Counted from the stretch's first letter, positions 14,790 through 44,736 are shown. The stretch: DNA of 64,000 nt from an uncultured Spartobacteria bacterium (GCA_903868795.1 CAIPWR010000041.1:18540-82539), one strand, 5' to 3'. The notes: generated by a model from the letters alone, not told the origin. Translations and numbers: made by a program.

Positions 14790-14863
14790 TGCAGCCATGA
14801 GGAGTCGAACCTCAAACCTTCTGATCCGTAGTCAGATGCTCTATCCAATTGAGCTATGGCTGC
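14790..14863 (-). tRNA. tRNA-Arg (anticodon ACG)
   Basis: The reverse complement folds by hand into a 74-nt cloverleaf: 7-bp acceptor GCAGCCA/TGGCTGC, D arm GCTC/GAGC, anticodon stem TCTGA/TCAGA with loop CTACGGA, T arm TGAGG-TTCGACT-CCTCA. No encoded CCA. Confidence 0.95.
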
Positions 14864-18671: not shown

Positions 18672-18725
18672 GCGTCTCCCCCCCGGTTGTTCAAAATACT
18701 TATCCCCATTGGAAAAAAAGTTCCC

Positions 18726-18754
18726 TTGACCACAAGCGGACTCAGGTTGATATT
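18726..18754 (+). promoter_or_regulatory. candidate sigma70-type promoter for the SAM-riboswitch leader
   Basis: TTGACC (18726-18731), a 17-nt spacer, then GATATT (18749-18754). This places a start about 7 nt downstream, at the 5' edge of the aptamer. Confidence 0.45.
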
Positions 18755-18763
18755 CGGCGCTCA

Positions 18764-18878
18764 ATCTTATCAAGAGTGACGGAGGGACTGGCCCGCTGAT
18801 GTCACGGCAACCGCTGCGAGGCTTCTCGTAGGCCCAGGTGCCAAATCCAGCTCCGAGCATTCGGGGAAAAGATGAGAT
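18764..18878 (+). promoter_or_regulatory. SAM-I (S-box) riboswitch aptamer
   Basis: AUCUUAUCAAGAG-UGAC-GGAGGGACUGGCCC-GCUGAUGUCAC-GGCAACC...GGUGCCAAAUCCAGC...AAAAGAUGAGAU. P1 pairs 18764-18771 with 18871-18878. P2 is GUGAC/GUCAC. All core conserved blocks of the S-box are present. Confidence 0.9.
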
Positions 18879-18961
18879 ACTTGGCAGAGTCGATGGTCCC
18901 CAGGGATCCGGCACCAGGTCTCCTCGGCACTCTTGATGGGAACACAACCGACCGAGATCCC

Positions 18962-25500: not shown

Positions 25501-26004
25501 ATGCGTCATCGTAAAAAAACCGTCAAACTCGGCCGCAGTCAGGCACACCGTGATTCGCTTCTCGCGAACCAAGTCTGCAGCCTCATCGAGCACCGCCGCA
25601 TCAAGACCACCCTCGCCAAAGCCAAGGCTACCAAGCCGCTGGCCGAGCGTATGCTCACTCTGGGCAAACAGGGTGATCTTCACTCCCGCCGCGTTGCGAT
25701 CTCCTACCTGAAACACAAGGACATCGTGAAGAAGCTCTTCACCGAGATCGCTCCTGCCGCCGCCGACCGCAAGGGAGGCTATACCCGCATCGTGAAGCTC
25801 GGAGCCCGTCTCAGCGACAGCGCCCCGATGGCTTACCTCGAGTGGGTTGACTACGCTCCCGTTGCGAAGGAGGAGGTCGTTGCCGAGACTGCTGAAAAGC
25901 CAGCCAAGAAAGCAAAGGCACCTAAGGCCGAGAAAGCCGAAGGCGAAGCTCCTAAAAAGAAGGCCGCTCCTAAGAAAGCTAAGGAAGAGAAGTCCGAGGA
26001 ATAA
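25501..26004 (+). CDS. rplQ: 50S ribosomal protein L17 with a Lys/Ala/Glu-rich C-terminal extension
   Basis: MRHRKKTVKLGRSQAHRDSLLANQ...GGYTRIVKLG core, followed by a ~50-aa tail KPAKKAKAPKAEKAEGEAPKKKAAPKKAKEEKSEE. Confidence 0.93.
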   Translation: MRHRKKTVKLGRSQAHRDSLLANQVCSLIEHRRIKTTLAKAKATKPLAERMLTLGKQGDLHSRRVAISYLKHKDIVKKLFTEIAPAAADRKGGYTRIVKLGARLSDSAPMAYLEWVDYAPVAKEEVVAETAEKPAKKAKAPKAEKAEGEAPKKKAAPKKAKEEKSEE

Positions 26005-26027
26005 AACTCCGCTTCAAGCAATCAACG

Positions 26028-26059
26028 AAAAGCCCCGGAGTTCTTCCGGGGCTTTTTTC
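26028..26059 (+). terminator. rho-independent terminator after rplQ
   Basis: AAAGCCCCGGAG-TTCT-TCCGGGGCTTTTTTCT. Confidence 0.85.
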
Positions 26060-26106
26060 TGGAGTTCAATAGTAAAACGGAGTAACTCAATTGGAAACCT
26101 CCTCTC

Positions 26107-28110
26107 ATGCTGATGCGTCAATTAAAGATAAAATTATTTTTTAAAGCAATAAGCTACAGCCTCGCAAGTGGGGTAACGATTTGCCGACTTTATTCAGCTG
26201 ATGTTCCCATGGCAAATCCTGCGAGTGTTATTGCCACGCCCCCAGGGTCTGTCGTTGTGAATTCTTTTGAGAGTGTTGAAATGGAGAAACTTCGCATGAC
26301 TAAAGAGATTGGGAAGTTAGAGCGAGAAGAGGCCGAATTCAAAGAGGGCTCTATTAAACTGCAGAAGAAGCTTATCGACGCATCTGCGTCAGCGGCTACT
26401 CCGGCAAACCTCCCCTCGGATTATAGTAGTTTTATTAATGCTCCGTCTAAGAATGTAAACCGATCCGTATACTACTATGGACAGCTCCAAGAGGCTCTAA
26501 ATCAACTCACGCCGGCAAGCCCATATCTTGCGAGAACAACAATTGATACTGTCAGTCCGGTAAGAGCGGGAGAAATTCTCAAACAGATGGGAAATTTTGA
26601 GGAAGACGAAGGAATTTCAAGAACCATCTTGAATCAATGGAGTGCAAAGGAGGGAAGTGTGAGAGACGATGCCGCGAGAATGGCCCAACTTAATAATGAT
26701 ATATCACAACTAGAAAAAGAGAGAGATCGATTACAGTGGAATTATAACCAAGGTGGAAAAATTAATCCCCTAACGGAGCGGCCATTTGCTAACGACAAAG
26801 ATCAGTCCAGCCTGTTAGAGCAAACAGAAAGGGTCAAAGACCAGATTTCTGAACTTGTTAAAGAAAAAGGCTCATTTCGTAATTTTGTTAATACGCCATT
26901 AAGAAAATTAGAATTTCAGCAATTTATTGTTCAGCTTGCGGCTCAAGAGAGATACATACACGCCCTGATTGCCTGTGGATTTTACAGAAATGTTTTCCCT
27001 GGTGGTGACATGTCCCTTTCTGAAAAAGCTTATCCTGGAGGAGGATCTGCGAATAATGGCGCTCCTGGGAACGCTGGAGGAAATTCGGGTGCCACACCGG
27101 CAACTCCAACATCAGCCGGAGCAACTGCATCACAAGGGTTACCTGTTATTAGCACAATTACCGGCATGGAAAGCTTCCTTCTCAACAGGATCAGGGATGC
27201 AAAAACCGACCGCGAGTCTGTCGAGAACATGCTTAAGTCAAAGCAACTTAGTGCCGCGGAGAGCCTTCTCCGAAAAATGGTTACAACGGCAAAATACCAG
27301 CCCGAATTGCAAACCTTCGCTTATGAAGAAAGACAGGTAGTACAAGAATACACTAAAACAATACGACAATTAACCGAGGCACTCAATAGCAAAGACTGGC
27401 CCGAAATTGAAAAACTTTCAGATAAGCTTGAACAAGAGTCAACGGATGTAGGAGCTCAAGACCTGAAAGCTTTCGCAAAAGAAAACAGACAAAAATCTCT
27501 ACTTTGGACACGAATGGCGGAAGTTGTCATGCGTGGTGGTGATATGCAGGGAGCAGAATCACTGCTAGATGCTGCACGCAAAAGATCACCTACAGATGCG
27601 CAGGTATCAGAAGCGGTCTCAAATACACAAGACAAAACCCTGACGGATGAAAAGCTCAAAGAGCAATTGGATCAGGTTTTAAAAAGTGCTGATTATGTAC
27701 AAGCATTTGAAAGAATGGGCGAATTTGCCCCGCTGGTCGCCTCTGCAAAAGACGAGAAACAAAAATCTGCATATGAGGTCCTCATAGACAAAGAAAAGTC
27801 GGTGAAAGCAGCTTTGGAAAAAAGTTCCTCACTTCAACAGATGAGTGCCCCTTCGGATGCATGGATGGAACTGGAATTGCTGCCTGATCCACTAAATAAA
27901 GATAAAAGGGTTTTAGAGAGAAAGTCAGTTCTTGCAACTGACTGTGGCCAGTTTATTTCATCTTATGGGAAAGGTAAAAAATATGAAGCTTCGGGAAAGC
28001 CAACTCTCGCCATTACTTGGTATTTGCAAGCGCTTACCAATGCACCTTCATGCACAATGTTAAAAGATAAGATCAAGTCTCTGAGCGGTGAAGCCTTGCG
28101 CAAAAACTAG
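26107..28110 (+). CDS. hypothetical secreted, largely helical/coiled-coil protein (667 aa) in an AT-rich islet
   Basis: Long uninterrupted ORF in a region where other frames are closed. N-terminal signal-like segment (FFKAISYSLASGVTICRLYSA). A Gly/Ala/Asn/Pro low-complexity hinge (GGGSANNGAPGNAGGNSGATPATPTSAG). No family recognised. Confidence 0.7.
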   Translation: MLMRQLKIKLFFKAISYSLASGVTICRLYSADVPMANPASVIATPPGSVVVNSFESVEMEKLRMTKEIGKLEREEAEFKEGSIKLQKKLIDASASAATPANLPSDYSSFINAPSKNVNRSVYYYGQLQEALNQLTPASPYLARTTIDTVSPVRAGEILKQMGNFEEDEGISRTILNQWSAKEGSVRDDAARMAQLNNDISQLEKERDRLQWNYNQGGKINPLTERPFANDKDQSSLLEQTERVKDQISELVKEKGSFRNFVNTPLRKLEFQQFIVQLAAQERYIHALIACGFYRNVFPGGDMSLSEKAYPGGGSANNGAPGNAGGNSGATPATPTSAGATASQGLPVISTITGMESFLLNRIRDAKTDRESVENMLKSKQLSAAESLLRKMVTTAKYQPELQTFAYEERQVVQEYTKTIRQLTEALNSKDWPEIEKLSDKLEQESTDVGAQDLKAFAKENRQKSLLWTRMAEVVMRGGDMQGAESLLDAARKRSPTDAQVSEAVSNTQDKTLTDEKLKEQLDQVLKSADYVQAFERMGEFAPLVASAKDEKQKSAYEVLIDKEKSVKAALEKSSSLQQMSAPSDAWMELELLPDPLNKDKRVLERKSVLATDCGQFISSYGKGKKYEASGKPTLAITWYLQALTNAPSCTMLKDKIKSLSGEALRKN

Positions 28111-28115
28111 AACCT

Positions 28116-28520
28116 ATGACCAGACAACCTAAAAAAAACACTCACTTGGTTATAACTGGAGCTGGAATCGTTGCCATTATTGCCATTGGTTCATTTTTTG
28201 GATTTAGCAAAAAAGCTTTTTCGAAAAGTGATTTTAATAAATGTGCAGCATTCCCCTTAGATAGCTATTTGGAAGGAGATGCTTTGTGGTCAAACGCTGA
28301 TTATGTGATTGAGGGAACCTTTCAAAACATTCTACTCAAGCAAGGCAGTTCAGAATGCACGCTCTGCTCAATCTTAACAGAAGACAAAAAGATACCACTA
28401 CCAGTTATTTTTACATCCGAGGCAACTAAGTCACCATTACAAAGAGAGCAGAAAATTAAGGTGAAAGTACGCGTTGAAGATGATGGAAGAATCATTGCCT
28501 CCGAGTGTGTCATTCAATAA
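28116..28520 (+). CDS. hypothetical membrane-anchored small protein (134 aa)
   Basis: Starts 5 nt after the previous stop. One N-terminal TM helix (LVITGAGIVAIIAIGSFFGF) followed by a small Cys-containing domain. It has the same AT-rich composition as its neighbour. Confidence 0.6.
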   Translation: MTRQPKKNTHLVITGAGIVAIIAIGSFFGFSKKAFSKSDFNKCAAFPLDSYLEGDALWSNADYVIEGTFQNILLKQGSSECTLCSILTEDKKIPLPVIFTSEATKSPLQREQKIKVKVRVEDDGRIIASECVIQ

Positions 28521-33147: not shown

Positions 33148-34440
33148 TTAGGAAAAGGATTCCACATTGAAGAGTACGGGATCTCCCTTCACGCAGTTGA
33201 GAGCTGAGATCTCAGCAAGGGCGGCACACATCACTCCATAGGCTGCCTCGTGGATCATCAGCACTAAGGGAGTCTCCACGCCTGCGATCGATTCCGGCTG
33301 TACTACCGAGGAGATGCCGATGCCAGCTGCTCCAAGAACGCCCGCAATGCGGGCCAGAACACCCGGCTTGTCATCCACGGAAAGTCGCAAGTAATAGGAG
33401 CCGACGATTTCTGCAGCTGGACGGCTGCTGCCATAGAGGCTGTGGGATGCAAAGCCGTAGGTCTGGCGCGGGGCATCCAGCACATGGGCCGCCTCGACGA
33501 GATCACCGATGACCGAAGTGGAAGTGGGGCCGCGACCCGCGCCGCGTCCGTAGAAGAGACTATCGCCGACGAGATCACCCCGGACAGCAACGGCATTAAA
33601 AACGCCATTCACCGAGGCCAGGACATTGCCGAGGGGAATGAGCGTGGGAGCCACGCCGACCTCGACCTTGCCGCTAATCTCGCGGATCGAGCCGAGAAGC
33701 TTGATGCAGTAGCCGAGACTCTTGGCGAAATGAATATCGGCCGCACTAACGCTATCGATTCCCTCGACGCGAATCGAGGCGTGATCAACCCAGAAGCCGT
33801 AGGCGAGGGCGGCCAAGATGATCGCCTTGTGGCCGGCATCCCATCCGTTGATATCGAGCGTGGGATCGGCCTCGGCATAGCCAAGTTGCACGGCCTCGGC
33901 AAGGGCCTCGGGGTAGTCGAGGCCTGCTTCCTGCATCCGGGTCAGGATGTAGTTGCTCGTGCCGTTGAGGATGCCGTGGACCGACTCGATGCGGTTGCCG
34001 ACGAAGGCATCGCGGAGCGACTGGATAATCGGAATGCCGCCGGCGACCGCCGCCTCGAAGAAGACGGGAACCTTGCACTCGCTTGCGAGGGCAAAAATCT
34101 CCGCGCCGCGCTCGGCGAGTAGGGCCTTGTTGCCTGTGACAACGATACGGCCCGACCTGATCGCGGCAACCGTAAGGTCAAAGGCCTCTGTGGTGCCGCC
34201 GATGAGTTCGACGACCACTTTGATCTCAGGATCTTCGAGGAGATCTTGCCAGCGGTTGGAAAAGAGTGCGGCGGGTGCCGCAATATCGCGCGTTTTTTTT
34301 GGATCTCGCACAACGATCCGACGGACATCAAAAGAGTATCCGGAGCGCTCCGCGATCAGGTCACGGTGACGTTCAAGATTTTCATAGACCCCGGCACCCA
34401 CGGTGCCGAAGCCGGCTAGTCCGATGCCGATAGTCTTCAT
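33148..34440 (-). CDS. hom: homoserine dehydrogenase
   Basis: The start is set at MKTIGIGLAGFGTVG (Rossmann motif); the ORF extends to 34512. It has a catalytic domain and a C-terminal ACT domain. Confidence 0.9.
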   Translation of the reverse strand: MKTIGIGLAGFGTVGAGVYENLERHRDLIAERSGYSFDVRRIVVRDPKKTRDIAAPAALFSNRWQDLLEDPEIKVVVELIGGTTEAFDLTVAAIRSGRIVVTGNKALLAERGAEIFALASECKVPVFFEAAVAGGIPIIQSLRDAFVGNRIESVHGILNGTSNYILTRMQEAGLDYPEALAEAVQLGYAEADPTLDINGWDAGHKAIILAALAYGFWVDHASIRVEGIDSVSAADIHFAKSLGYCIKLLGSIREISGKVEVGVAPTLIPLGNVLASVNGVFNAVAVRGDLVGDSLFYGRGAGRGPTSTSVIGDLVEAAHVLDAPRQTYGFASHSLYGSSRPAAEIVGSYYLRLSVDDKPGVLARIAGVLGAAGIGISSVVQPESIAGVETPLVLMIHEAAYGVMCAALAEISALNCVKGDPVLFNVESFS

Positions 34441-34619
34441 AAAGCAGCTCAGGATCTTCTCTCTTGAATCGGCCGAGGTAAAGCCGGTTTTGCCTCGGCC
34501 AAAGTCCTTCACCAGGAGTTGGGGTTTCAGGGTGCTTCCTCTATACTCACACGGCTACCCATGGTAGGGTTAATCAATGTCTTTGTTCAGATCGGAAGTG
34601 GCGATCTCCAACACCTTGA

Positions 34620-37600
34620 TTGAACGTGCCTCCTGATCAGGATCAGAGTGTTTTTGCTGACCCTCGCGGGATCAGGCGTCGTGTGCTTCAGGTAGTGGCC
34701 GTCGCCGGCGGGCTCTTCCTCCTAGGCGCCACAGCTTACTTTATCTGGGGCCTGCTGATTGGTCCGCAGCTTCAACTCCCTGCGATGGTGAAGGAGTTCC
34801 GCGCGAGGTTCAAGGCGCTCCCACCAGCCAAGATGCCCATACGGAATGCCAAGGATGACTGGCATCGCATTCATCTCGCCCAGAAAGATCACGCTCAATC
34901 CCCCTCGGCGAGCGTTCCCAAGAACACCGGCATCGTCCTCGGCTATGTCTCTCCTTGGGATCCGGCCTCCCTCCTTTCTCTGGAGCGGCATGCTGATCAA
35001 CTGACTCATGTGGCCGCCGATTGGTTCACACTGACCGGCGTGGAAGGGACACTCAAGGAGGACCCAAGTGACAAGGCCCGCCTGCTCTGTGTACGTAAGG
35101 GGCTCGGATTCCTTCCGATTCTCCGGAATCTCGACGGGAATACATGGCAACCCGAGGCCGTGGAGGAGTTGGCCCATGAGTCGGAAGCAGAGCGGAGTGC
35201 TTTTCTCGACCGAATGGTGAGACGTCTGCCGCCTGGATCGTCCGGTCTTTTGCTTGAGTTGAGCCAGTTGGATCCGACCTATAAGGATGAGTATTCGAGA
35301 CTGATCAAGGAGATGGCCGAGCATCTGCATGCGGTAGGTAAGGAGCTTTGGTTTTCCGCGCCCACTGGCGCTGACTTCGATGCCTTCGATCTATCTGCCA
35401 TCGCTGACTCTGTTGATAGGCTGGTTGCCACGCTCTACGACGAGAACTCGGAACCCGACGATCCCGGTCCGCTTGCCAGCAGCGACTGGTTCCAAGGCTG
35501 GCTCAAAACCATGATGGTCTATGGCGAGCCCTCACAATGGGTGATCGGGCTCGGCGCGTACGCCAATGACTGGAGGAAAGACAACAGTACCGTGGAGCAG
35601 ATCGGTTTCACCGATGCCATGGCGAGGGCCTCCCTCGCAGGCATTGATCCGCTCACGGGAGTGGATTACGAGGGAGGGTCACCGGATTTCAACTACCTTT
35701 CAGGACCTGATCAGCATGAGGAACACGAACTCTGGTTCCTTGATGCGGTAACACTCTTCAACCAACGTCGCCTGATAGCCCCGTTTCATCCCGGTGGAAT
35801 CGGCCTTTATAGGCTCGGGCAGGAGGATCCAGCTGTCTGGGATGTCCTGAGGATGAACCCTGAGAAGCCCCCCGATCTCCAGTCCATGGCCCGGCTTTCG
35901 AAGCTGAACCTTGACGAACTCATTGCCTCAAGCGGCACGGGTGACTTTATCTCCGTCGGAGGGGATCCTCACGAGGGAGACCGGCATTTGGAGACTCACG
36001 CCGACGGCGAATTGGTTGAGCGATATAACAAGTTGCCGATGCCCGAGAGCATCACGCGTCAGGGTGATCCCGGGCCGCGCAAGGTGGCCCTGACGTTTGA
36101 CGATGGTCCGGATCCTAAGTGGACCCCGAAGATCCTGGAGATTCTCAAGGAGAAGAATGCGCCCGCCTCGTTCTTTGTCCTCGGGACGCAGGCCCAGCAT
36201 TATCCCGATCTGTTGGAGCGGATTGCGCGTGCAGGTCACGAGGTCGGCAACCACACCTATACCCACCAGAATATTGCCGAGGAGAGCGACGAGCAGATCG
36301 AACTCGAGCTCAATGCCACGACACGACTTATCGAGGCGGTGACCGGCCACTCCACGGCGTTTTTTCGCCCGCCCTTTGGCATTGATGGAACTCCCAGCCA
36401 GCCCGGGGAGGTCCGATCGCTCCGGGTGATCCGGGATCTCGGGTACCTCACCGTCGCGGAATCGATCGATCCTGATGACTGGGAGCGACCGGGCGCTCAG
36501 GCCATCCTCGATCGGGTCAAGACCCAGAGGGCGTCCGGAGGAGCTGTCATTTTAATGCATGATGGCGGAGGTGATCGCTCCCAGACCGTGGAGGCTCTTC
36601 CGGAAATGATCGATTGGCTCCGAAGTCGCGGTGACGTGATCGTGCCGCTCGGCGACATCATCAACCTACCTCGCGATACTGTCATGCCCCCGCTTCGGGA
36701 GGAGAATCAGCCGCTCTCCGCGCGTTATGTTTATGGCGCTTTTGCTGTCATACGCTTCCTCGAGAATGCCGCCTGGACGCTCCTTGTCATCGTCACACTG
36801 CTCGCGCTGCTCCGTGTTCTCTTCTACGCCCTCTGTGCGCGGCGTCAGCGCCAGAAAGAGAAGTTAAGGGAGGAGTTGCCCATTCTTGCTTCCCCTGGTT
36901 CCTATCCGCCTGCCAGCGTCCTGCTAGCAGCCTATAATGAGGAGCGGGTTATTGCTTCAACGATCCGTCATCTCCTCGATTCCGATTATCCCGCCTCACT
37001 CGAAATCATCGTGGTCGATGACGGATCCAAGGATCGTACAGCCGAAGTTGTGGGATCCATCGCGGTGAATGAGCCCCGTGTCCGGTTAATCCGTCAGCCC
37101 AATGGCGGAAAAGCCTCCGCCCTCGACCATGCGCTCCGTCTCGCGAGTCACGAGGTCATCGTCATGATTGATGCTGATACGATGGTCGCGTCGGATGGTA
37201 TTCGTCAGTTGGTGAGGTCGCTCTCCGAGCCGAAGGTCGGTGCGGTTGCCGGTTACATCCGTGTCGGCAACACCAAACACTGGCTCGGTAGCTTCCAGGA
37301 TCTGGAGTATACTGCGGCCTTTGAGATCGATCGTCGCGCACAGGATCTTCTTGGCTGCATCACCGTGGCGCCAGGGGCACTCAGTGCCTTCCGCCGCAAG
37401 GCGCTTCTCGAGGCCGGACCGATTACCAACGACACTCTTGCCGAGGACACCGACCTCACCCTTCAACTGCATCGGTTGGGCTGGAAGGTAGTGTTTGCCT
37501 CGAAGGCTTTCGCTGATACGGAGGCACCCGAGAGTGTGAAGGCGCTTGTTTCACAGCGCTTTCGTTGGGCCTTTGGAACGCTTCAGTGTCTCTGGAAGCA

Positions 37601-38027
37601 TGGCGACATGACCTTTAATCCCGGTTCCGGTTGGCTTGGGTGGTTTGCCTTGCCCTCGGTCTGGGTTTTTCAAATGGCAGTTGTGGCATTGACTCCAGTG
37701 CTCGATCTGATCGTGCTTTGGTCGCTCTGGCTCGGTCGGGGCGTTGCGATCTGGCCCTATTTTGTTGCCTCGTTGCTCCTCGATATCATCCTTGGAATGA
37801 TTGCTCTGTCGATGGCGGGCCGACCGCTGCGGAAAGCGTGGCTAAGCGCTCCGATGAGACTTCTCTACAGGCCATTGCTCGGCTATGTCGTCTGGAAATG
37901 CATTCTCAAGGCATTAGGCGGAAGCTGGGTGCGATGGTCGAAGCTCGACCGGACCGCCGCCGCCATTATCCAAAAGGAACAAGGGAATCATAAAAAAACG
38001 GAGGCTCCACAAGCACCTGCATCATGA
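34620..38027 (+). CDS. trifunctional-architecture exopolysaccharide protein: TM - GH18-like domain - CE4 (NodB) polysaccharide deacetylase - TM - processive GT2 synthase - TM bundle
   Basis: The GH18-like region is about nt 34926-35834. CE4 motifs are TFDDGP, HTYTH, RPPFG, LMHDGG (about 36075-36674). GT2 motifs are VVDDGS, DAD, AEDTD, QRFRW (about 36906-37589). Hydrophobic helices lie at aa 22-48, 706-740 and 1003-1095. The start codon is non-ATG (TTG 34620 or GTG 34626). Confidence 0.85.
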   Translation: MNVPPDQDQSVFADPRGIRRRVLQVVAVAGGLFLLGATAYFIWGLLIGPQLQLPAMVKEFRARFKALPPAKMPIRNAKDDWHRIHLAQKDHAQSPSASVPKNTGIVLGYVSPWDPASLLSLERHADQLTHVAADWFTLTGVEGTLKEDPSDKARLLCVRKGLGFLPILRNLDGNTWQPEAVEELAHESEAERSAFLDRMVRRLPPGSSGLLLELSQLDPTYKDEYSRLIKEMAEHLHAVGKELWFSAPTGADFDAFDLSAIADSVDRLVATLYDENSEPDDPGPLASSDWFQGWLKTMMVYGEPSQWVIGLGAYANDWRKDNSTVEQIGFTDAMARASLAGIDPLTGVDYEGGSPDFNYLSGPDQHEEHELWFLDAVTLFNQRRLIAPFHPGGIGLYRLGQEDPAVWDVLRMNPEKPPDLQSMARLSKLNLDELIASSGTGDFISVGGDPHEGDRHLETHADGELVERYNKLPMPESITRQGDPGPRKVALTFDDGPDPKWTPKILEILKEKNAPASFFVLGTQAQHYPDLLERIARAGHEVGNHTYTHQNIAEESDEQIELELNATTRLIEAVTGHSTAFFRPPFGIDGTPSQPGEVRSLRVIRDLGYLTVAESIDPDDWERPGAQAILDRVKTQRASGGAVILMHDGGGDRSQTVEALPEMIDWLRSRGDVIVPLGDIINLPRDTVMPPLREENQPLSARYVYGAFAVIRFLENAAWTLLVIVTLLALLRVLFYALCARRQRQKEKLREELPILASPGSYPPASVLLAAYNEERVIASTIRHLLDSDYPASLEIIVVDDGSKDRTAEVVGSIAVNEPRVRLIRQPNGGKASALDHALRLASHEVIVMIDADTMVASDGIRQLVRSLSEPKVGAVAGYIRVGNTKHWLGSFQDLEYTAAFEIDRRAQDLLGCITVAPGALSAFRRKALLEAGPITNDTLAEDTDLTLQLHRLGWKVVFASKAFADTEAPESVKALVSQRFRWAFGTLQCLWKHGDMTFNPGSGWLGWFALPSVWVFQMAVVALTPVLDLIVLWSLWLGRGVAIWPYFVASLLLDIILGMIALSMAGRPLRKAWLSAPMRLLYRPLLGYVVWKCILKALGGSWVRWSKLDRTAAAIIQKEQGNHKKTEAPQAPAS

Positions 38028-39232
38028 GGACTCCTATCACGAAGACCCCTGTTACGGCCTTGCTGCTTGGCATTTTTATCGCTGCAAGCTCAGTCCTGAG
38101 CGGTACCACCCCGTATCAGCAACTTCAGATTCCGGAGAAGGGTGCCTACACAGGTGCCTACTGCGACTTCGGAGACGGGGAGGATGGAGTGACCTATGAG
38201 GCCCTGGAAGATTTTCAGCAGCTCACGGGCAAGCCGATGGCTCTTGTTGCTCTTGGTTCCTTCTGGGGAAGGGGATCTTTTCCCACGCAACAGGTCGAGC
38301 TGGTCCGATCCTATGGAGCGGTGCCACTGCTCTTTTGGTCGCCTTGGGACGCTCCGTACGACGAGAAGCGTGGCCCGGATAAATTTGCACTCACTGAGAT
38401 CATCGCTGGAAAATGGGATGCCTACATCGATCAGTGGGCTGACGCAGCTGCAAAAGTCCCGTCACAATTTTTTGTCTCTTTTGCCTGTGAAATGAACGGG
38501 ACATGGTTCCCCTGGTCCGGATGGTTCTACGGCAAGGGACCACGTGATCCGGTCAAGCCCAAGAATCCTGGAACTACTGCATCCTCAACCGGTGCCGTCG
38601 CCAAACTCATCGGTGCGGATGACGGGCCCGAAATCAATTGGTTCGGCAAGGGCGACATTAAGAATCCCGCCACATGGGAGGGGCCTGAGACATTCAAAAG
38701 GGCATGGCGCCACGTCGTCGACCGTGTTCGTGCCCGCGGCGCGACCAACGTCCTTTGGGTTTTCCAACCCAACAACTACTCCGATCCGCCCGGCTACATT
38801 TCGTGGAATCAACCGGCGGCCTACTATCCCGGGTCAAAGTATGTCGACTGGCTAGGACTGAGCGTTTACGGAAAACAGACCAATAATCAGGAAGACGACC
38901 AGTGGTGCGGCTTCAGCAAACTTCTGGAGTGGCCCTATGCCGAGATGTGTGCGCTCGATCCGGACAAGCCGATCATGCTTGCGGAGTGGGGTGTGGCGGA
39001 ATCCCATCGCTCGGGTGAAGACAAGGGTGCATTCATTGCCGAGGCGTTCCATGAGATGGGGAATGCATCCAAATACCCCAGGCTCAAGGCTGCGATCTTC
39101 TGGCATGAGCGCTGGCAGAACGACGACGGCTCCTACAGCAATCTGCGGGTGAATTCCTCCCGTGCCTCCCTTCAGTCCTACCGCGATGGCGTGCTCAATC
39201 CCTTCTGGATCGGCAGGCCGATCTGGAAATAA
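38024..39232 (+). CDS. secreted GH26-like (clan GH-A) glycoside hydrolase
   Basis: The start overlaps the upstream stop (ATGA). Signal peptide ALLLGIFIAASSVLSG. FACEMNGTWFPWSGW resembles the GH26 HEMNG.WFWW acid/base block, and IMLAEWGV resembles the nucleophile block. Confidence 0.7.
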   Translation: MRTPITKTPVTALLLGIFIAASSVLSGTTPYQQLQIPEKGAYTGAYCDFGDGEDGVTYEALEDFQQLTGKPMALVALGSFWGRGSFPTQQVELVRSYGAVPLLFWSPWDAPYDEKRGPDKFALTEIIAGKWDAYIDQWADAAAKVPSQFFVSFACEMNGTWFPWSGWFYGKGPRDPVKPKNPGTTASSTGAVAKLIGADDGPEINWFGKGDIKNPATWEGPETFKRAWRHVVDRVRARGATNVLWVFQPNNYSDPPGYISWNQPAAYYPGSKYVDWLGLSVYGKQTNNQEDDQWCGFSKLLEWPYAEMCALDPDKPIMLAEWGVAESHRSGEDKGAFIAEAFHEMGNASKYPRLKAAIFWHERWQNDDGSYSNLRVNSSRASLQSYRDGVLNPFWIGRPIWK

Positions 39233-39296
39233 AAGAGCAAAGAGAGTCTTGCTTACGGGTTTTGACCCGGAGGGATTCTCGCTGTAGCCTTAAAGG

Positions 39297-40586
39297 ATGC
39301 GTTTGATTTCCTACAAAGACCACGGCTTTGACCGCTCCCTTGCTGACTTGAATCGCCAAGCCGAACCGCGCGCCGAAGTGCGTGAGACGGTCTCGGAAAT
39401 CATTGCCGATATCCGAAAGAAAGGAGATGCCGCGCTTCTCGCCTACACGCAGAAATTCGGAGGACCGAAGATCACGGCCCCCAAGATCCGGGTCACTCCT
39501 GAGGAGATCAAGAAAGCGCAGGCATCCTTGTCTCCCGAAGTCAAAAAAGCCCTCTCCGCCTCGATTGCGAACGTCACGGCATTTGCCAAAAAGAGCCTTC
39601 GTAAGAACTGGTCGATGAAGAACGCTCAGGGGGCGCTTGTCGGGGAACGATTTGACCCGCTTCCGAGGGTGGGCCTATACATTCCCGGCGGCACGGCCCC
39701 TCTTGTCTCGAGTGCCATCATGACCTGTGGGTTTGCCAAGGCGGCCGGAGTCCCTGAGATCGTGGCTGTTACCCCTGCTGCTCAGGATGGGAGTGTGTCT
39801 CCGGCATTATTGGCCGCTCTTCATCTCTGTGGTGCAACGGAAATCTACCGCGTCGGGGGAGCCCAGGCGGTTGCCGCGCTGGCCTACGGCACCAAGACGA
39901 TCCGCCCTGTCACAAAGATCTTCGGACCGGGGAATGCCTATGTCGTCGAGGCGAAGCGTCAGGTTTTCGGGCGGGTGGGTATCGACCTGCTTCCTGGGCC
40001 CAGCGAAGTACTTGTGATTGCTGACGCGAAGGCCAATCCCGTATGGGTGGCCGCTGATCTACTTGCGCAGTCAGAGCATGGGGCAGGAAGTGTCGTGGTG
40101 CTCTTGAGTGATTCCGACAAGCTTATCGCTTCCGTTCAGAAAGAGGTAACGCGACAGTCGCAGCTTTCATCTCGCCCCGAGCATCTTGCGAAAGCAATGG
40201 CCAACGCAGTGCTCGTCCGCGTGCGTGACATGGCGCAGGCCGTGGAGATCGCCAACGGATTCTCCGCCGAGCATGTCTCCCTGGCTGTCCGCAAGCCCGA
40301 GTTGCTTGCAACCAAGCTAAACTCTGCGGGAGGAATTTTTCTCGGAGACATCTCGCCGGTGGCCGCCGGGGATTTCCTTGCCGGCCCAAGCCACGAACTC
40401 CCCACTGGGGGAGCTGGGAAGGCCTTTGCAGGACTCACCGCCGAGCAGTTCCAGAGACGCACCAGTATCGTCCGCTATGATGTTGTCTCGCTCAAAAAAT
40501 CCCTGCCGATCATCGAGACCTTTTGCGAGGTCGAGGGACTCGACGCCCACGGGCGTTCCGTTTCGTTGCGCGTGAAGGGAGAGTAA
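39297..40586 (+). CDS. hisD: histidinol dehydrogenase
   Basis: 429 aa with HisD blocks (YIPGGTAPLVSSAIM, LLAQSEHG, GDFLAGPSHELPTGG). Confidence 0.93.
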   Translation: MRLISYKDHGFDRSLADLNRQAEPRAEVRETVSEIIADIRKKGDAALLAYTQKFGGPKITAPKIRVTPEEIKKAQASLSPEVKKALSASIANVTAFAKKSLRKNWSMKNAQGALVGERFDPLPRVGLYIPGGTAPLVSSAIMTCGFAKAAGVPEIVAVTPAAQDGSVSPALLAALHLCGATEIYRVGGAQAVAALAYGTKTIRPVTKIFGPGNAYVVEAKRQVFGRVGIDLLPGPSEVLVIADAKANPVWVAADLLAQSEHGAGSVVVLLSDSDKLIASVQKEVTRQSQLSSRPEHLAKAMANAVLVRVRDMAQAVEIANGFSAEHVSLAVRKPELLATKLNSAGGIFLGDISPVAAGDFLAGPSHELPTGGAGKAFAGLTAEQFQRRTSIVRYDVVSLKKSLPIIETFCEVEGLDAHGRSVSLRVKGE

Positions 40587-40589
40587 GGG

Positions 40590-41444
40590 ATGCTCTGGAG
40601 ATTCCGAGGGCGTCAGCTCGATCTCTCCTTGCAGGGCGCCATCGTCGGAATTGTGAATGCGACCCCGGATTCTTTCTCGGATGGAGGGGCGTTTTTGGAT
40701 CCGTCGGCGGCCTCTGCACAGGGACTGAAACTTCTCGAGGAGGGGGCCTCGCTACTCGATCTCGGTGGTGAGTCGACCCGCCCGGGATCGCTTCCCATAT
40801 CGACTGAAGAAGAGTTGCGCCGTGTCGTGCCTGTGGTCAAAGCACTAAGAGCCCGAACTGACGCTCCGATTTCCATCGATACCTCCAAGGCTGCCGTGGC
40901 CGAGGCATGTCTCTCCGAGGGGGCAGATATCATCAATGATGTGACAGCCCTTGAAGGAGACCCACGGATGGGAGAGGTTGTGGCTCGGACTGGAGCCGGA
41001 CTCATTCTCATGCACATGCAGGGAACCCCCGAGACCATGCAGGTGAATCCCATCTATCAGCAGGACGATGTGGTGGGTGAGGTGGCAAAATATCTTTCAG
41101 CACGCCGTGATGTGGCCCTAGGCTGTGGCGTGGACTCCGCCGCCATCATCCTGGATCCCGGTCTTGGCTTTGGGAAAACCGTGGCTCACAACCTGGCGCT
41201 CATTCGTGGTATTCCGCAGTTGATAAAGATCGGCTCCCCGATCCTGCTTGGACATTCCAGAAAGTCATTTCTTGGAAAAATCACAGGGGAGAAGAAGCAG
41301 GTCCCTTCGGAGGAGCGTCTTGCTGCAGGCCTAGCCGTGACAGCACTTGCCCGATCCCTTGGAGCCCGCCTCTTCCGAGTGCATGAGGTAAAGCCGCACC
41401 GTGAGGCCCTCTGCATCGCCGAGGCTCTCATAGGTAACCACTGA
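40590..41444 (+). CDS. folP: dihydropteroate synthase
   Basis: GIVNATPDSFSDGG, DLGGESTRPG, INDVTAL, DPGLGFGKT. Confidence 0.92.
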   Translation: MLWRFRGRQLDLSLQGAIVGIVNATPDSFSDGGAFLDPSAASAQGLKLLEEGASLLDLGGESTRPGSLPISTEEELRRVVPVVKALRARTDAPISIDTSKAAVAEACLSEGADIINDVTALEGDPRMGEVVARTGAGLILMHMQGTPETMQVNPIYQQDDVVGEVAKYLSARRDVALGCGVDSAAIILDPGLGFGKTVAHNLALIRGIPQLIKIGSPILLGHSRKSFLGKITGEKKQVPSEERLAAGLAVTALARSLGARLFRVHEVKPHREALCIAEALIGNH

Positions 41445-41448
41445 TACG

Positions 41449-42366
41449 ATGAGTGATTTTTTTCATAAAAACGTTTCGTTGATCGGGCAGTATTGGACCT
41501 CGGGGCTCGAGATCCTGATCCTCTCGACGATCCTCTATTACATCTATCTCTATCTGCGAGGCACGCATGGTGCGCGGATCCTGATCGGTCTTGCGTTGGT
41601 CTTTCTCACCCTCACCTTCATCTCCCAAGTACTTGATCTGGCGGTGCTTGGATGGTTGCTCCGCAGCTTCTCGGTCTTCATGGCGATAGCCTTGGTGGTA
41701 CTCTTTCAGCCGGAACTGCGTCGAGCGCTGAACGAGTTGGGCAGTCACCGGTTTTTTACCACCGCTCTCCAGCGACGTGAGGCGATCGAGGAGATCACGG
41801 ATACCGTCTTTGATCTTTCAAGCAAGGGATTCGGAGCCCTGATCGCACTGGAACGAGACCTAAGCCTAAAGTCCGTTGCCGAGAGTGGAGTCGAGATTGA
41901 TGCCGAATTCTCCAAGGAGCTGCTGCTGACGATTTTCCATCCCAAGACAGTCCTGCATGACGGCGGGGTGATTTTGAGTGGCGACCGGATCGTGGCGGCG
42001 GGTTGTATTTTTCCCCTGACCCAGCGTGACGATCTCGATCGGACGATCGGACTGCGCCATCGCGCGGGGCTTGGGCTTTCCGAAGAGAGCGATACCATCG
42101 CCCTGGTGGTTTCCGAAGAGAGCGGACAAGTTTCGATTTGTCACTCGGGTGCCATCGAGCGCAACTTGAATGTCGAGCGATTCCGAAAGCGACTCTCACA
42201 GCTTCTGATCCGCGAAGAAAATCATGCGAAAAATCCTGCTGCACAATTGGAAGGAGAAACTGGTCTGCCTGCTTCTGGGGTCGGCGCTTTGGTATCTCAT
42301 TCATCAAAACCTGGGTCCTCTTCCGGAACACAAATCGCGAACCGCGGAGAACTCTCAGAACTCTGA
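41449..42366 (+). CDS. cdaA: diadenylate cyclase (CdaA/DacA type) with a low-complexity C-terminal tail
   Basis: Three N-terminal TM helices. DAC domain motifs LHDGGVIL and GLRHRAGLGLSEESDTIALVVSEESGQVSI. Confidence 0.9.
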   Translation: MSDFFHKNVSLIGQYWTSGLEILILSTILYYIYLYLRGTHGARILIGLALVFLTLTFISQVLDLAVLGWLLRSFSVFMAIALVVLFQPELRRALNELGSHRFFTTALQRREAIEEITDTVFDLSSKGFGALIALERDLSLKSVAESGVEIDAEFSKELLLTIFHPKTVLHDGGVILSGDRIVAAGCIFPLTQRDDLDRTIGLRHRAGLGLSEESDTIALVVSEESGQVSICHSGAIERNLNVERFRKRLSQLLIREENHAKNPAAQLEGETGLPASGVGALVSHSSKPGSSSGTQIANRGELSEL

Positions 42367-42421
42367 GGAGAAGGCTCCTACGCCTCACCCGGAGCGCAAG
42401 GTTCACAACTCCAAAAAATAA
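42224..42421 (+). CDS. possible truncated CdaR/YbbR-like membrane anchor (65 aa), overlapping the cdaA 3' end out of frame
   Basis: MRKILLHNWKEKLVCLLLGSALWYLI resembles the N-terminal anchor of CdaR/YbbR proteins. It sits exactly where cdaR lies in the conserved cdaA-cdaR-glmM arrangement. No YbbR repeat follows. Confidence 0.4.
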   Translation: MRKILLHNWKEKLVCLLLGSALWYLIHQNLGPLPEHKSRTAENSQNSEEKAPTPHPERKVHNSKK

Positions 42422-42433
42422 CGCTCCGCTCGC

Positions 42434-43792
42434 ATGGCAGTCAGAAAACTTTTTGGCACGGATGGCATTCGTGGATCCGCGAATGCCCATCCTATCACTC
42501 CCGAAATCGCCTTAAGACTTGGGCGCGCTGCAGGATACCTGATGAGGGGTCAGGGACCGTGCCGTCCACGTTTCGTGATTGGTAGGGACACCCGACGCTC
42601 CGGGGAAATGCTTGAAGCTGCCCTGGTCGCGGGCCTCAACTCAATCGGAGCTGATGTACTGCTTGCCGGGGTGATCCCTACGCCCGCCGTCGCGTGCCTG
42701 GTCCAGGAACTCAAGGCCGATGGGGGAGTCGTCATCTCGGCCTCCCATAATCCCGCCGGGGACAACGGGCTGAAGCTCTTCGGAAGGGATGGCTATAAGT
42801 TGGATGACACCTTGGAAGAGCGCTTGGAGACGCTGATCCTTACGGAGGAGATTGATGGGGAGCGTCCGCTGGGCGACGCGATTGGTATCGCTACGATCAT
42901 TCCTGATGCCTCCGCGCGCTATGGAGCAATGGCTAAAGCCAGTGTCCCTGGAATATCACTGCATGGGCTGAAGATCGCTGTTGATTGCGCGAATGGAGCT
43001 TCGTTTCAGACGACTCCGCAGGTTCTTAAGGATCTTGGGGCGACTCTCGCGGTTTTCCATGCCTCACCGGACGGCATGAATATCAATGAGGAATGCGGCA
43101 GCACCCATGGGGAAGAGATCCGTCGTTTGGTTAAGGAGACAGGCGCTCACATCGGTATCTCACATGATGGGGATGCCGACCGACTGGTTCTCTGCGACGA
43201 ACAGGGTGAGATCGTTGATGGGGATGAGATTTTAGCAATGGCGGCACTAGATGCTCTCCGGCGTGGGACACTTGCTGGAAAGACACTTGTCGCCACCGTG
43301 ATGAGCAACTTCGGCCTCGATGAATCGATCGTGGCTGCTGGAGGCAAGGTTCTCCGGACCGCAGTCGGCGATCGCTATGTCGTGGAGGCCATGCGTGAGG
43401 GGAACTTCTCGATCGGCGGAGAACAGAGCGGTCACCTCATCTTCCGTGATCATGGGACGACAGGTGACGGCCTTCTTGCAGCACTCCAAGTCCTGCGCAT
43501 CATGACTGAAAGTGGCAAGCCCCTGAGCGAGCTTCGTCGCTGTCTCAAGAAATACCCGCAGGCCCAGCGCAATCTCCGCGTGAAGGAGAAGCCGCCACTC
43601 GAAACGTTGGCAGAGGTTTCAGCCCTGATTTCAGAAACGGAACAAGCTCTCTCCGGAAAGGGCCGTGTTCTGTTGCGCTACTCCGGAACTGAGCCAAAAA
43701 TCCGCTTGCTGATCGAAGGTCCGAACGAAGCGATGATCAATGAGGCTGCTGAAAAGATCGCCGCCGCTCTTACTTCTGCAATTGGGCTCTAG
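42434..43792 (+). CDS. glmM: phosphoglucosamine mutase
   Basis: LFGTDGIRG and the active-site ISASHNPAGDNGLK. Confidence 0.93.
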   Translation: MAVRKLFGTDGIRGSANAHPITPEIALRLGRAAGYLMRGQGPCRPRFVIGRDTRRSGEMLEAALVAGLNSIGADVLLAGVIPTPAVACLVQELKADGGVVISASHNPAGDNGLKLFGRDGYKLDDTLEERLETLILTEEIDGERPLGDAIGIATIIPDASARYGAMAKASVPGISLHGLKIAVDCANGASFQTTPQVLKDLGATLAVFHASPDGMNINEECGSTHGEEIRRLVKETGAHIGISHDGDADRLVLCDEQGEIVDGDEILAMAALDALRRGTLAGKTLVATVMSNFGLDESIVAAGGKVLRTAVGDRYVVEAMREGNFSIGGEQSGHLIFRDHGTTGDGLLAALQVLRIMTESGKPLSELRRCLKKYPQAQRNLRVKEKPPLETLAEVSALISETEQALSGKGRVLLRYSGTEPKIRLLIEGPNEAMINEAAEKIAAALTSAIGL

Positions 43793-44736
43793 GATCTGCC
43801 CTGGCTGAACCCCTTCCAAAGGTCGCCGATCGAATCGGTGATAAAGGTTAAGAGGATTCCGAGAAGAGAAGCCAACTCCTTAGAGAATCGAACAAAGGAC
43901 CTGGTGTTCTCCACAAAATCACGACCGAGTGACGTGAGTGAAATTTCCTTTCCTGTGACCAAGAGCAGGCCGGTGATGATGATGAGATTGATCAGATAGA
44001 TCACGGTCAGGGAAAAAAATGTTCCCCCGTAGTGAAGGTCGGGTTGTCCCTTGGCGATCAGGAGGCAGGTGAAGACAAGGTGGAAGGCCATTGTAAAACC
44101 AAGCAGCAGGAAGAGCACCCATCGGTAAGCGCTGAGGTCCGCCGCCAGGGATGCCGCACCGTAAAGAGAGACGACAAGAAGGCTATAGAGAGGGAAGAAA
44201 TACGGGGCGAGTGCGATCCAGGTATTCACCCGATCCGTGAGGACATGGCCCCCGTCCAGACTGACATGAAAATGGTCAGCCACCTTGCCTCCGAAGAGCT
44301 TGACCCAGAGAGCGTGAGTCACTTCATGACCAAAGACATAGGGCCACATGAGGATCGCGCGCGGTATGCTGAAGAACAAGACACCCAATAGGATCATCCC
44401 TGCGGCGAAGCATTGGAAGTTCGTATTGTCCAGCAGGCCTCCTTGAACCGATGCGGTGAAGGCCTGAAAGAAGGTCTCCGTGAGAATCAGCGCAACAGGC
44501 AGGAGAAAGAGTCCAACGATAAATTTCACCCACGATTTGGGAATTGTCGCAGCGTTCTTTTCTGAGCGACTAGGGAGCGACGGCTGATTGCAGTCATGCG
44601 TAGGTTCTCCCCGATTAAAAAGATCCTGAGAATCAGCCACGGTCGTTGCGACACGAACGCAACGCGACGCGACGCGGGTTATTTTCCCCGGTGACCTAGC
44701 CCCACCCTTTCTCTGCTGAGAGGAAGGGCGTGCCAC
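43789..44736 (-). CDS. polytopic membrane protein with an HExxH motif (putative zinc metallopeptidase, DUF3267/M50-like)
   Basis: Six or more hydrophobic helices and the motif YVFGHEVTHALW. It lies downstream of efp on the same strand. Confidence 0.6.
   Translation of the reverse strand: MARPSSQQRKGGARSPGKITRVASRCVRVATTVADSQDLFNRGEPTHDCNQPSLPSRSEKNAATIPKSWVKFIVGLFLLPVALILTETFFQAFTASVQGGLLDNTNFQCFAAGMILLGVLFFSIPRAILMWPYVFGHEVTHALWVKLFGGKVADHFHVSLDGGHVLTDRVNTWIALAPYFFPLYSLLVVSLYGAASLAADLSAYRWVLFLLLGFTMAFHLVFTCLLIAKGQPDLHYGGTFFSLTVIYLINLIIITGLLLVTGKEISLTSLGRDFVENTRSFVRFSKELASLLGILLTFITDSIGDLWKGFSQGRS

Follow-up and report, generated by a model that had tools for sequence, protein, structure and literature searches.

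The window analysed here is a stretch of 64,000 nucleotides from an uncultured Spartobacteria bacterium (GCA_903868795.1, CAIPWR010000041.1:18540-82539), and the host is probably a member of Verrucomicrobiota. The plus strand contains two overlapping genes. The first encodes a tri-domain protein that consists of a GH18-like barrel, a CE4 polysaccharide deacetylase and a processive GT2 glycosyltransferase, and is below called the synthase. The second encodes a secreted glycoside hydrolase of the GH26 family. The features of the locus are listed below; positions are counted from the first letter of the window, and the evidence is given in brackets.

34620..38027, plus strand: tri-domain synthase gene (single open reading frame (ORF), Pfam and NCBIfam matches, AlphaFold model, full-length homologues)
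34644..34760, plus strand: MatA-like module, residues 9-47, the cytoplasmic motif VFADPRGIRRR followed by the first transmembrane helix, TM1 (conservation, hidden Markov model (HMM) of the module)
34932..35852, plus strand: GH18-fold (beta/alpha)8 barrel, predicted periplasmic, residues 105-411 (alignment to the crystal structure 5jh8, Foldseek)
35244..35264, plus strand: degenerate GH18 catalytic block GLLLELS, residues 209-215 (alignment to INVDFE of 5jh8)
35901..36062, plus strand: small beta-domain between the GH18 barrel and the CE4 domain, residues 428-481 (five strands in the AlphaFold model, predicted local distance difference test (pLDDT) about 80-90)
36063..36689, plus strand: CE4/NodB deacetylase with five motifs, residues about 482-690 (Pfam, PDB matches, Foldseek)
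36714..36875, plus strand: single long helix, residues 699-752, with a membrane core at about 719-741 followed by RRQRQKEK (hydropathy, flanking charges, model)
36906..37619, plus strand: processive GT2 domain, residues about 763-1000, with DDGS, DAD, AEDTD and QRFRW (Pfam, NCBIfam, alignment to PgaC)
37632..38000, plus strand: C-terminal interface and transmembrane helices, residues 1005-1127 (hydropathy, helices of the model)
38024..38027, plus strand: ATGA, start/stop overlap of the GH26 and synthase genes (sequence, kept in close relatives)
38024..39232, plus strand: GH26-family glycoside hydrolase, 402 aa (Pfam GH26, alignment to the lichenase CtLic26A, model)

The synthase gene is an uninterrupted frame of 1135 codons. 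Its start is uncertain by a few codons, the candidates being TTG at 34620, which is the first in frame and directly follows a stop codon, and GTG at 34626. An initial annotation, made from the sequence of the window, had described a single 1135-aa ORF, its domains and eight of their motifs, and this description stands. The frame is open throughout, and Pfam, alignment to PDB sequences and the AlphaFold model place the parts in the order MatA-like module with TM1, GH18-like barrel, beta-domain, CE4, transmembrane helix, GT2 and C-terminal helix bundle. The motifs are found at residues 492 (TFDDGP), 545 (HTYTH), 583 (RPPFG), 645 (LMHDGG), 800 (DDGS), 851 (DAD), 941 (AEDTD) and 979 (QRFRW); a fifth CE4 motif, DPDDW at residue 617, had not been quoted before. 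The full-length model, for which 58 homologues served as input, has a mean pLDDT of 81.7; in it CE4 occupies residues 488-690 and GT2 residues 765-1000. Both in these homologues and in genome loci from other phyla, CE4 and GT2 keep their catalytic motifs essentially unchanged.

Relatives of the tri-domain fusion were found in at least 595 genomic stretches from about ten phyla in a scan of one genome per species. The best 80 of these stretches, below called the 80 loci, are mostly full-length matches with 32-43% identity to the window protein. They come from Verrucomicrobiota, Desulfobacterota, Acidobacteriota, Alpha- and Gammaproteobacteria, Bacteroidota, Gemmatimonadota, Cyanobacteria, Bacillota and Armatimonadota. 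A search of protein clusters produced 349 matches at E <=1e-10 among the scored candidates, and nearly all of the best 120 have the same Pfam set; the few matches that carry names are from metagenome-assembled genomes of Chthoniobacterales, Spartobacteria or Chthoniobacter. By itself, the N-terminal domain has matches in 996 clusters (at the 50% identity level) with the same threshold.

The initial annotation had allowed for the frame to be interrupted by sequencing errors, and the converse may be considered as well, namely that an assembly error or a frameshift has fused separate GH18, CE4 and GT2 genes into one long ORF. No sign of such an event was seen in the window. The same unbroken architecture recurs at similar length (1100-1240 aa, 43-93% identity) in over 100 protein clusters as well as in full-length matches among the 80 loci from many phyla, finished genomes and plasmids included. 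These refute the artefact, whose probability we regard as negligible. The opposite artefact was observed at one locus (L088, 6001-9581), where the tri-domain homologue is broken up into three ORFs that overlap (459, 560 and 186 aa); the first has a tail that looks out of frame, and the break is probably due to assembly frameshifts. Among database entries that match the N-terminal domain, many of those with about 450 aa are similar fragments or are labelled 'partial'.

The family includes genes on plasmids, where GenBank and RefSeq records label the tri-domain proteins just as 'glycosyltransferase' or 'glycosyl transferase family 2'. On plasmid p322 of Bacillus mycoides the tri-domain gene stands alone between two IS6 transposase genes (L090, 2137-9521), and similar copies occur on many plasmids of this species. 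This suggests that the single-gene system is horizontally mobile. A shorter fusion of GT2 and deacetylase in B. anthracis is BA3480 (927 aa), which is annotated and uncharacterised. Its identification with BA5436 is wrong, as the latter is a 245-aa deacetylase.

The two enzymatic domains of the core are assigned with confidence. The CE4 domain matches Pfam PF01522 at residues 482-588 (E 7e-36, 123.4 bits against a cut-off of 23.1) and CE4 sequences of the PDB at E 1e-35; its model superposes on Bc1960 with a TM-score of 0.83, and its motif residues, among them the Asp-His-His metal triad and the catalytic Asp and His, are invariant or nearly so in the 58 homologues. The GT2 domain matches Pfam PF13641, PF00535 and PF13632 within residues 763-1039 (E 1e-27 to 1e-35). 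All four motifs of processive membrane synthases are invariant in the same homologues, and the fold corresponds to those of hyaluronan synthases, BcsA and Chs1. In tblastn comparisons GT2 scores were 132-151 bits for PgaC, 102-112 for NodC, 96 for HasA and 76 for BcsA, and the identity to E. coli PgaC is 31% over 268 residues. For the GT2 domain together with the transmembrane part, the best Foldseek matches are single-subunit hyaluronan synthases (TM-score 0.55-0.60), ahead of BcsA and Chs1. Like the corresponding part of the window protein, the Class I hyaluronan synthases of Chlorella virus and Xenopus combine polymerase and translocase in one subunit. However, the sequence identity is about 19%, and these enzymes have no periplasmic domains and make a different product.

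Hydrophobic segments of the synthase are located at residues 21-49, 707-742 and 1006-1070. The arginine-rich stretch RGIRRR lies ahead of TM1, and the middle helix is succeeded, on the predicted cytoplasmic side, by RRQRQKEK. Since a single helix, 699-752, crosses the membrane between the CE4 and GT2 domains, the model predicts that these lie on opposite sides. The GT2 domain requires cytoplasmic UDP-sugar, and because it is separated from the GH18 and CE4 domains by this one helix, the latter two are predicted to be periplasmic. This topology, supported in silico by the charges and by the full-length model, is the one that the initial annotation had proposed. The C-terminal bundle and helix 699-752 presumably form the translocation channel.

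The GH18-like domain is a different case. Residues 105-411 align to 5jh8 with E 4e-20 over 307 residues, the model of the barrel superposes on this structure with a Foldseek TM-score of 0.84 and a root mean square deviation of 2.9, and the spore-cortex enzymes SleL, YaaH and YdhD align more weakly. The previous assignment to GH18 is thus upheld as regards the fold. However, the Pfam PF00704 score is 23.3 bits, below the cut-off of 29.6 (for comparison, a typical member of the family, found in B. mycoides, reaches 81.6 bits), and the catalytic pair is gone. The D-x-E pattern at the end of strand 4 (DxxDxDxE block) is replaced by E-L-S, with glutamate instead of aspartate and serine instead of the acid glutamate. 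Because of this loss, the domain in the window protein is probably a binding module and not a hydrolase. In the family alignment the block changes by clade, from E-[WLF]-[SATN] in proteins with at least 66% identity to D-W-N at about 54% and D-W-E at about 44%. The block is readable in 72 genome loci, and 62 of these retain D-x-E. The losses are concentrated in the clade of Verrucomicrobiota and Desulfobacterota nearest the window (8 of 12 readable loci, against 2 of 60 elsewhere, both of them D-x-D in Bacteroidota).

The downstream gene starts within the stop codon of the synthase gene, as noted previously, and GGAGG is present about 18 nt upstream of its start. The protein has a Sec-type signal peptide at residues about 1-27 without a lipobox cysteine. 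It matches Pfam PF02156 with 36.8 bits (cut-off 20.2), has the fold of clan GH-A and is most similar to the Clostridium thermocellum lichenase CtLic26A, with E 2.5e-23, both catalytic glutamates aligned and a TM-score of 0.86, against about 0.6 for GH26 mannanases. The catalytic residues E156 (38489-38491) and E321 (38984-38986) are invariant in 43 homologues. Judging by these matches and the model, the protein most probably belongs to the gluco-specific branch of GH26, as a retaining enzyme that is exported and catalytically active. It differs from CtLic26A (about 24% identity) by an insertion of 55 residues (167-221), by the signal peptide without dockerin or carbohydrate-binding module, and by its biosynthetic setting, whereas the lichenase is degradative.

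The initial annotation had called for a survey of the fusion and of its GH26 partner. The fusion turned out to be widespread, whereas the pairing is clade-specific: a GH26 gene directly follows the synthase gene in only 9 of the 80 loci, all from Verrucomicrobiota or Desulfobacterota, and also in the close relatives of the window. Among the 80 loci GH26 is thus present solely in the clade where the loss of the GH18 acid is concentrated. The association of GH26 with the loss of D-x-E has a naive Fisher p of 0.002, computed without phylogenetic correction and with two alignment-gap artefacts counted as losses. A possible order of events is that GH26 was recruited first and selection on GH18 catalysis was then relaxed, leaving the binding module.

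The extreme N-terminus of the synthase contains a further conserved element. Positions F12, D14, P15, G17 and R19 are conserved in at least 90% of the family alignment, and in tri-domain proteins of many phyla the motif (V/I)F-x-D-(P/A)-x-G-(R/K)-R-x-R directly precedes TM1, with a variant, IFQTxxPxRWxxFKW, in Bacteroidota. A similar arrangement was found in Streptomyces. Directly upstream of both examined genes for MatB-like proteins there is a gene encoding a protein of 248-255 aa (L089, 3918-4685; L091, 3964-4710), which consists of PVFVD(A/S)SGRRQR, one transmembrane helix and a tail rich in proline, threonine and alanine. On a plasmid of Kocuria rosea (L092, 4653 onward) the motif and the transmembrane helix are fused straight onto CE4-GT2.

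An HMM of the N-terminal module was trained on the N-termini of tri-domain proteins alone and searched against 21,110 ORF fragments. It recognised one of the two Streptomyces proteins with 26.1 bits (E 7.6e-6) and the other with 22.2 bits (E 1.3e-4), against 26.8 bits for the window protein and 14 bits (E 0.044) for the first noise match. MatA of Streptomyces is described as a 'membrane protein' without known domains, translationally coupled to matB and required for production of poly-N-acetylglucosamine (PNAG) (PMC4391728, PMC5972031). Its length of about 237 aa can be derived from the reported frameshift at Leu165, which is located 216 bp before matB, and from the overlap between the stop codon of matA and the start codon of matB (PMC4391728). 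The size and position of the two upstream proteins agree with this. The suggestion that the motif and TM1 are a fused counterpart of MatA is well motivated but unproven. The arginine-rich juxtamembrane motif suggests a regulatory or gating role. The idea that MatA is a split-off GH18 domain was rejected, as standalone relatives of the domain (see below) lie in unrelated contexts or are gene fragments, the upstream Streptomyces protein has no similarity to GH18, and the likeness resides in the motif and TM1.

The rest of the chain resembles MatB. As in the Streptomyces proteins, a CE4 domain outside, one transmembrane helix and a PgaC-like GT2 domain inside form one polypeptide. Along the CE4-TM-GT2 module of the window protein, of which the alignments cover 86-96%, MatB-type proteins of Streptomyces are 38.8-40.4% identical to it: 38.8% over 96% for the 'bifunctional polysaccharide deacetylase/glycosyltransferase family 2' of Streptomyces viridifaciens and 40% for two further Streptomyces proteins; the K. 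rosea protein has 37%. Neither the MatAB system nor that of the window has a homologue of PgaA, PgaD or IcaD. The differences are that everything is fused in one chain in the window protein, with the GH18 barrel and the beta-domain inserted between TM1 and CE4, that GH26 is coupled downstream, that there is no adjacent IcaC-like acyltransferase, and that the host is a diderm. The gene on the K. rosea plasmid (L092, 4653-7958) is convergent with a gene annotated as 'chitinase'. The latter was considered as a counterpart of the GH18 domain and rejected, as its Pfam GH18 score is 22.9 bits and it has no detectable similarity to the N-terminal domain of the window protein.

We consider it fairly probable that the locus encodes a self-contained system of the MatAB kind which synthesises, translocates and deacetylates a polysaccharide in a diderm host, accompanied by a GH26 enzyme for trimming. 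We infer the substrate, the linkage, the roles of the GH18, GH26 and N-terminal parts and any crossing of the outer membrane from directly observed architecture, motif states, conservation and co-occurrence, and from the logic of the topology. The cytoplasmic GT2 domain would polymerise UDP-GlcNAc to beta-linked poly-GlcNAc, the leading candidate being a beta-1,6 chain of the PNAG type. The chain would pass through a channel of the protein's own helices, that is, helix 699-752, the C-terminal bundle and probably TM1, in a manner resembling single-subunit hyaluronan synthases, and would be partly de-N-acetylated by the tethered periplasmic CE4 domain. The GH18 barrel, whose acid is lost in this lineage, may bind or guide the chain. 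The coupled, secreted GH26 enzyme would be the glycosidase that trims the chain, releases it or sets its length, a role that BcsZ, PslG and the C-terminal domain of PgaB have in other systems. The cytoplasmic motif with TM1, as the fused MatA counterpart, would be needed for synthase activity.

Several observations weigh against this reading. The likeness to MatA is based on a module of only about 37 residues, and the plasmid-borne Streptomyces genes are putative orthologues of SCO2962 (MatB) and SCO2963 (MatA). GH26 and a lost GH18 acid do not fully coincide, and phylogeny confounds their association: four GH26-linked loci retain D-x-E, and Udaeobacter has D-x-Q without GH26. No porin of the PgaA, BcsC or PelB type nor any other outer-membrane export component was found in the window, and no experimental study of any tri-domain member was found in the open-access literature. 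Finally, some points concern the product. The best NCBIfam model for the synthase is TIGR03937 (PgaC_IcaA), but the score of 192.5 bits is far under the equivalog cut-off of 422.3. By NCBIfam and PDB matches, the CE4 domain is more like NodB and the deacetylases of chitin and peptidoglycan than like PgaB/IcaB, and the NCBIfam models that follow PgaC_IcaA are of the NodB, PdaB and PgdA types (NodB HMM, 151 bits). The GH18 and GH26 families are known for action on beta-1,4 or beta-1,3 bonds, not on beta-1,6.

The CE4 matches fit another product as well, a beta-1,4 chitin-like chain that is converted by CE4 to a chitosan-like polymer or to oligomers, which would amount to a membrane-bound pair of the NodC/NodB or chitin synthase/deacetylase type. 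The GH18 domain would then be the ancestral chain cutter, and the target of GH26 would be beta-1,4 stretches of gluco configuration that have been deacetylated, in line with its similarity to the gluco-specific CtLic26A. Most family members have the canonical D-x-E and, as the B. mycoides protein, match Pfam GH18, and the synthase scores 48.9 bits with Pfam Chitin_synth_2. On the symbiosis plasmids of Rhizobium and Sinorhizobium (H77-H85) the adjacent nodB and nodC genes form one colinear match to residues about 485-990, with CE4 and GT2 in the same order and about 30-34% identity. However, NodB and NodC are separate proteins, whereas the window protein is a single fused chain; NodB is cytoplasmic, and Nod products are short oligomers. 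The GT2 domain itself argues for the other product. It scores about two times higher with the PgaC/IcaA model than with NodC (105 bits; CelA, 74 bits), and it carries AEDTD at the position where NodC and chitin synthases have a motif of the EDR type. The product of the homologous MatAB system is PNAG, for which both of its proteins are required, and this polymer is sensitive to dispersin B, reacts with the monoclonal antibody F598 and is independent of calcofluor staining (PMC5972031). Because the GT2 domain is nearest to PgaC/IcaA and MatAB makes PNAG, we lean, on similarity and analogy, towards a PNAG-type beta-1,6 product. The chitosan-like polymer is a serious rival, though we think it rather improbable.

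The genomic neighbourhood gives few additional clues. In close relatives from JGI and ENA metagenomes the block is hom (divergent), synthase, GH26, hisD, folP, cdaA and glmM, with the four-base overlap kept. A functional link to hisD-folP-cdaA-glmM, through UDP-GlcNAc supply or cyclic di-AMP, was rejected as local synteny, since the block is missing from the 80 distant loci. Clustering of neighbours in the 80 loci revealed no partner conserved across phyla. The commonest neighbour (11 of the 80) looks like a GT-C/PMT-like membrane protein, assigned by reading the sequence and not by a scan, and the rest are housekeeping genes. No riboswitch, such as one for cyclic di-GMP, was detected in the 107-nt leader of the synthase gene, where Rfam gave no match even at E 1. 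Scans of 34300-44000 for promoters and terminators produced no more sites than shuffled sequence, and are uninformative on the limits of the operon.

The initial annotation had noted the local absence of an outer-membrane porin, of a PgaD-like subunit and of a cyclic di-GMP receptor, had called this unusual for a diderm, and had proposed a search for the porin. For the porin and PgaD the local absence was confirmed. A linked porin with tetratricopeptide repeats (TPRs) and a beta-barrel, canonical for diderm exopolysaccharide systems, is not encoded within the 64-kb window, nor is a small membrane protein of the PgaD/IcaD type encoded next to the synthase in the window. Synthases of the PgaC/IcaA kind depend on such a partner, and PgaCD also on cyclic di-GMP; the MatA-like motif with TM1 is a candidate built-in equivalent of the small subunit. 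The sole outer-membrane protein in the window is a TolC-like outer-membrane efflux protein beside a MacB transporter. The only ORF with TPRs (26107-28110) was considered as a PgaA/BcsC-like porin and rejected, as its repeats are C-terminal and it has no barrel and no PDB match. However, the situation is not unusual: none of the 80 loci has a porin conserved beside the synthase, and a lone gene without an outer-membrane porin is the rule in the tri-domain family.

In another reading, the GH18 and CE4 domains act on peptidoglycan instead of the GT2 product, cutting or de-acetylating the sacculus locally to let the nascent glycan pass. A variant is that the product is retained in the envelope or periplasm and is not a secreted matrix polymer, which would explain why no porin is linked to the gene in the 80 loci. 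The nearest solved relatives of the two domains include, respectively, the spore-cortex hydrolases and peptidoglycan GlcNAc deacetylases. Standalone, membrane-anchored relatives of the N-terminal domain on long contigs occur in unrelated contexts (P0286, P0396) or derive from a frameshift-broken tri-domain gene (P0342/L088), and the first of these, P0286, adjoins an L,D-transpeptidase gene. One study reports that cell-wall remodelling enzymes are required for the deposition of a Streptomyces glycan (PMC9040799). On the other hand, the window clade has lost the GH18 acid while CE4 is intact, which is a better fit to handling of the product. Covalent attachment of CE4 beside the mouth of the channel, an arrangement shared with MatB, suits modification of the product during its synthesis. 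Further, GH26 enzymes are not known to act on peptidoglycan. We consider these variants quite unlikely, and the MatAB-like system described above remains the preferred interpretation.

The comparison with PgaABCD of E. coli, made in the initial annotation together with that to MatB, is apt for the GT2 domain but not for the periplasmic half. Both systems have a processive GT2, a CE4 domain and a (beta/alpha)8 domain of the glycosidase type, and the window lacks the PgaA porin and PgaD. However, the CE4 domain is of the canonical NodB type and not of the PgaB type (BLASTP to E. coli PgaB aligns the TFDDG region only, E 0.005). The barrel is GH18 and N-terminal to CE4, whereas that of PgaB is GH153 and C-terminal to CE4. 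Further, GH18 and CE4 are anchored in the inner membrane, whereas PgaB works at the outer membrane.

Bundalovic-Torma et al. (2020) described, computationally, clades of glycosyltransferase-fused, IcaB-like 'PgaB' in Gram-negative bacteria, in operons without pgaA and pgaD (PMC7112194). The window protein very probably falls within these clades; a text search of that paper found no GH18, and it describes neither the GH26 partner nor the N-terminal motif. Annotations of the tri-domain family are already widespread, and the CE4-GT2 core had attracted notice in 2020. No description of the tri-domain form, of the GH26 branch with decayed GH18 or of the MatA-like N-terminal module was found in the open-access literature. 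New here are the loss of the GH18 acid in the GH26-linked clade, the MatB-type identity of CE4-TM-GT2 and the MatA-like motif with TM1.

A wider reading, which we offer tentatively and consider doubtful as a whole, joins these observations. The GH18-CE4-GT2 proteins and MatAB would form one pan-bacterial class of porin-independent poly-GlcNAc/GlcN synthases. The motif FxDPxGRR with TM1 would be an obligatory activating or gating element, the counterpart of IcaD/PgaD and possibly a ligand switch. In Verrucomicrobiota and Desulfobacterota GH26 would have displaced GH18, the latter now being a lectin-like pseudo-enzyme, and in diderms the cationic glycan would be retained in the envelope or exported by a novel route.

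Several other features were observed in the window. A 1273-aa ORF on the minus strand (15126-18947) has two CBM2 matches and a GH18 match at 43 bits, and has the look of a secreted chitinase. Its true start is probably further in, as the listed 5' end overlaps an S-adenosylmethionine riboswitch on the opposite strand (RF00162, 79.8 bits, 18764-18878, plus strand), which is located directly upstream of a pyridoxal phosphate-dependent (PALP) gene at 18872-20218. A tRNA gene is located at 14790-14863 (minus strand). The GC content of the region 26001-28520 is 0.44, against about 0.57-0.60 in nearby 2-kb windows. This patch, which may be acquired DNA, encodes a 667-aa protein with C-terminal TPRs only and without sequence matches to solved structures, and a 134-aa ORF without family. 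Downstream of folP, cdaA and then a glmM-type phosphoglucosamine mutase gene (41449-43792, plus strand) are kept in close relatives. A 315-aa ORF (43789-44736, minus strand) has no Pfam match but is conserved in place in the close relatives L081-L084.

The usual picture of synthase-dependent exopolysaccharide systems is one of multi-protein complexes that span the envelope. In the family considered here, a single protein of the inner membrane unites synthase, translocase and deacetylase with a domain of the glycosidase type, typically without a linked porin or small subunit. If the proposed interpretation is true, it would be a minimal and genetically simple system for studying the coupling of polymerisation and modification, and it would assign a role to the enigmatic MatA of Streptomyces. 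It would also be a natural case of a glycosidase domain decaying to a binding module after a second hydrolase had been recruited, and would lead one to ask whether diderms export such a polymer through the outer membrane and, if so, by what means. The family may reveal a common, overlooked matrix or envelope glycan in soil and freshwater Verrucomicrobiota, Acidobacteriota, Sphingomonads and Bacteroidota.

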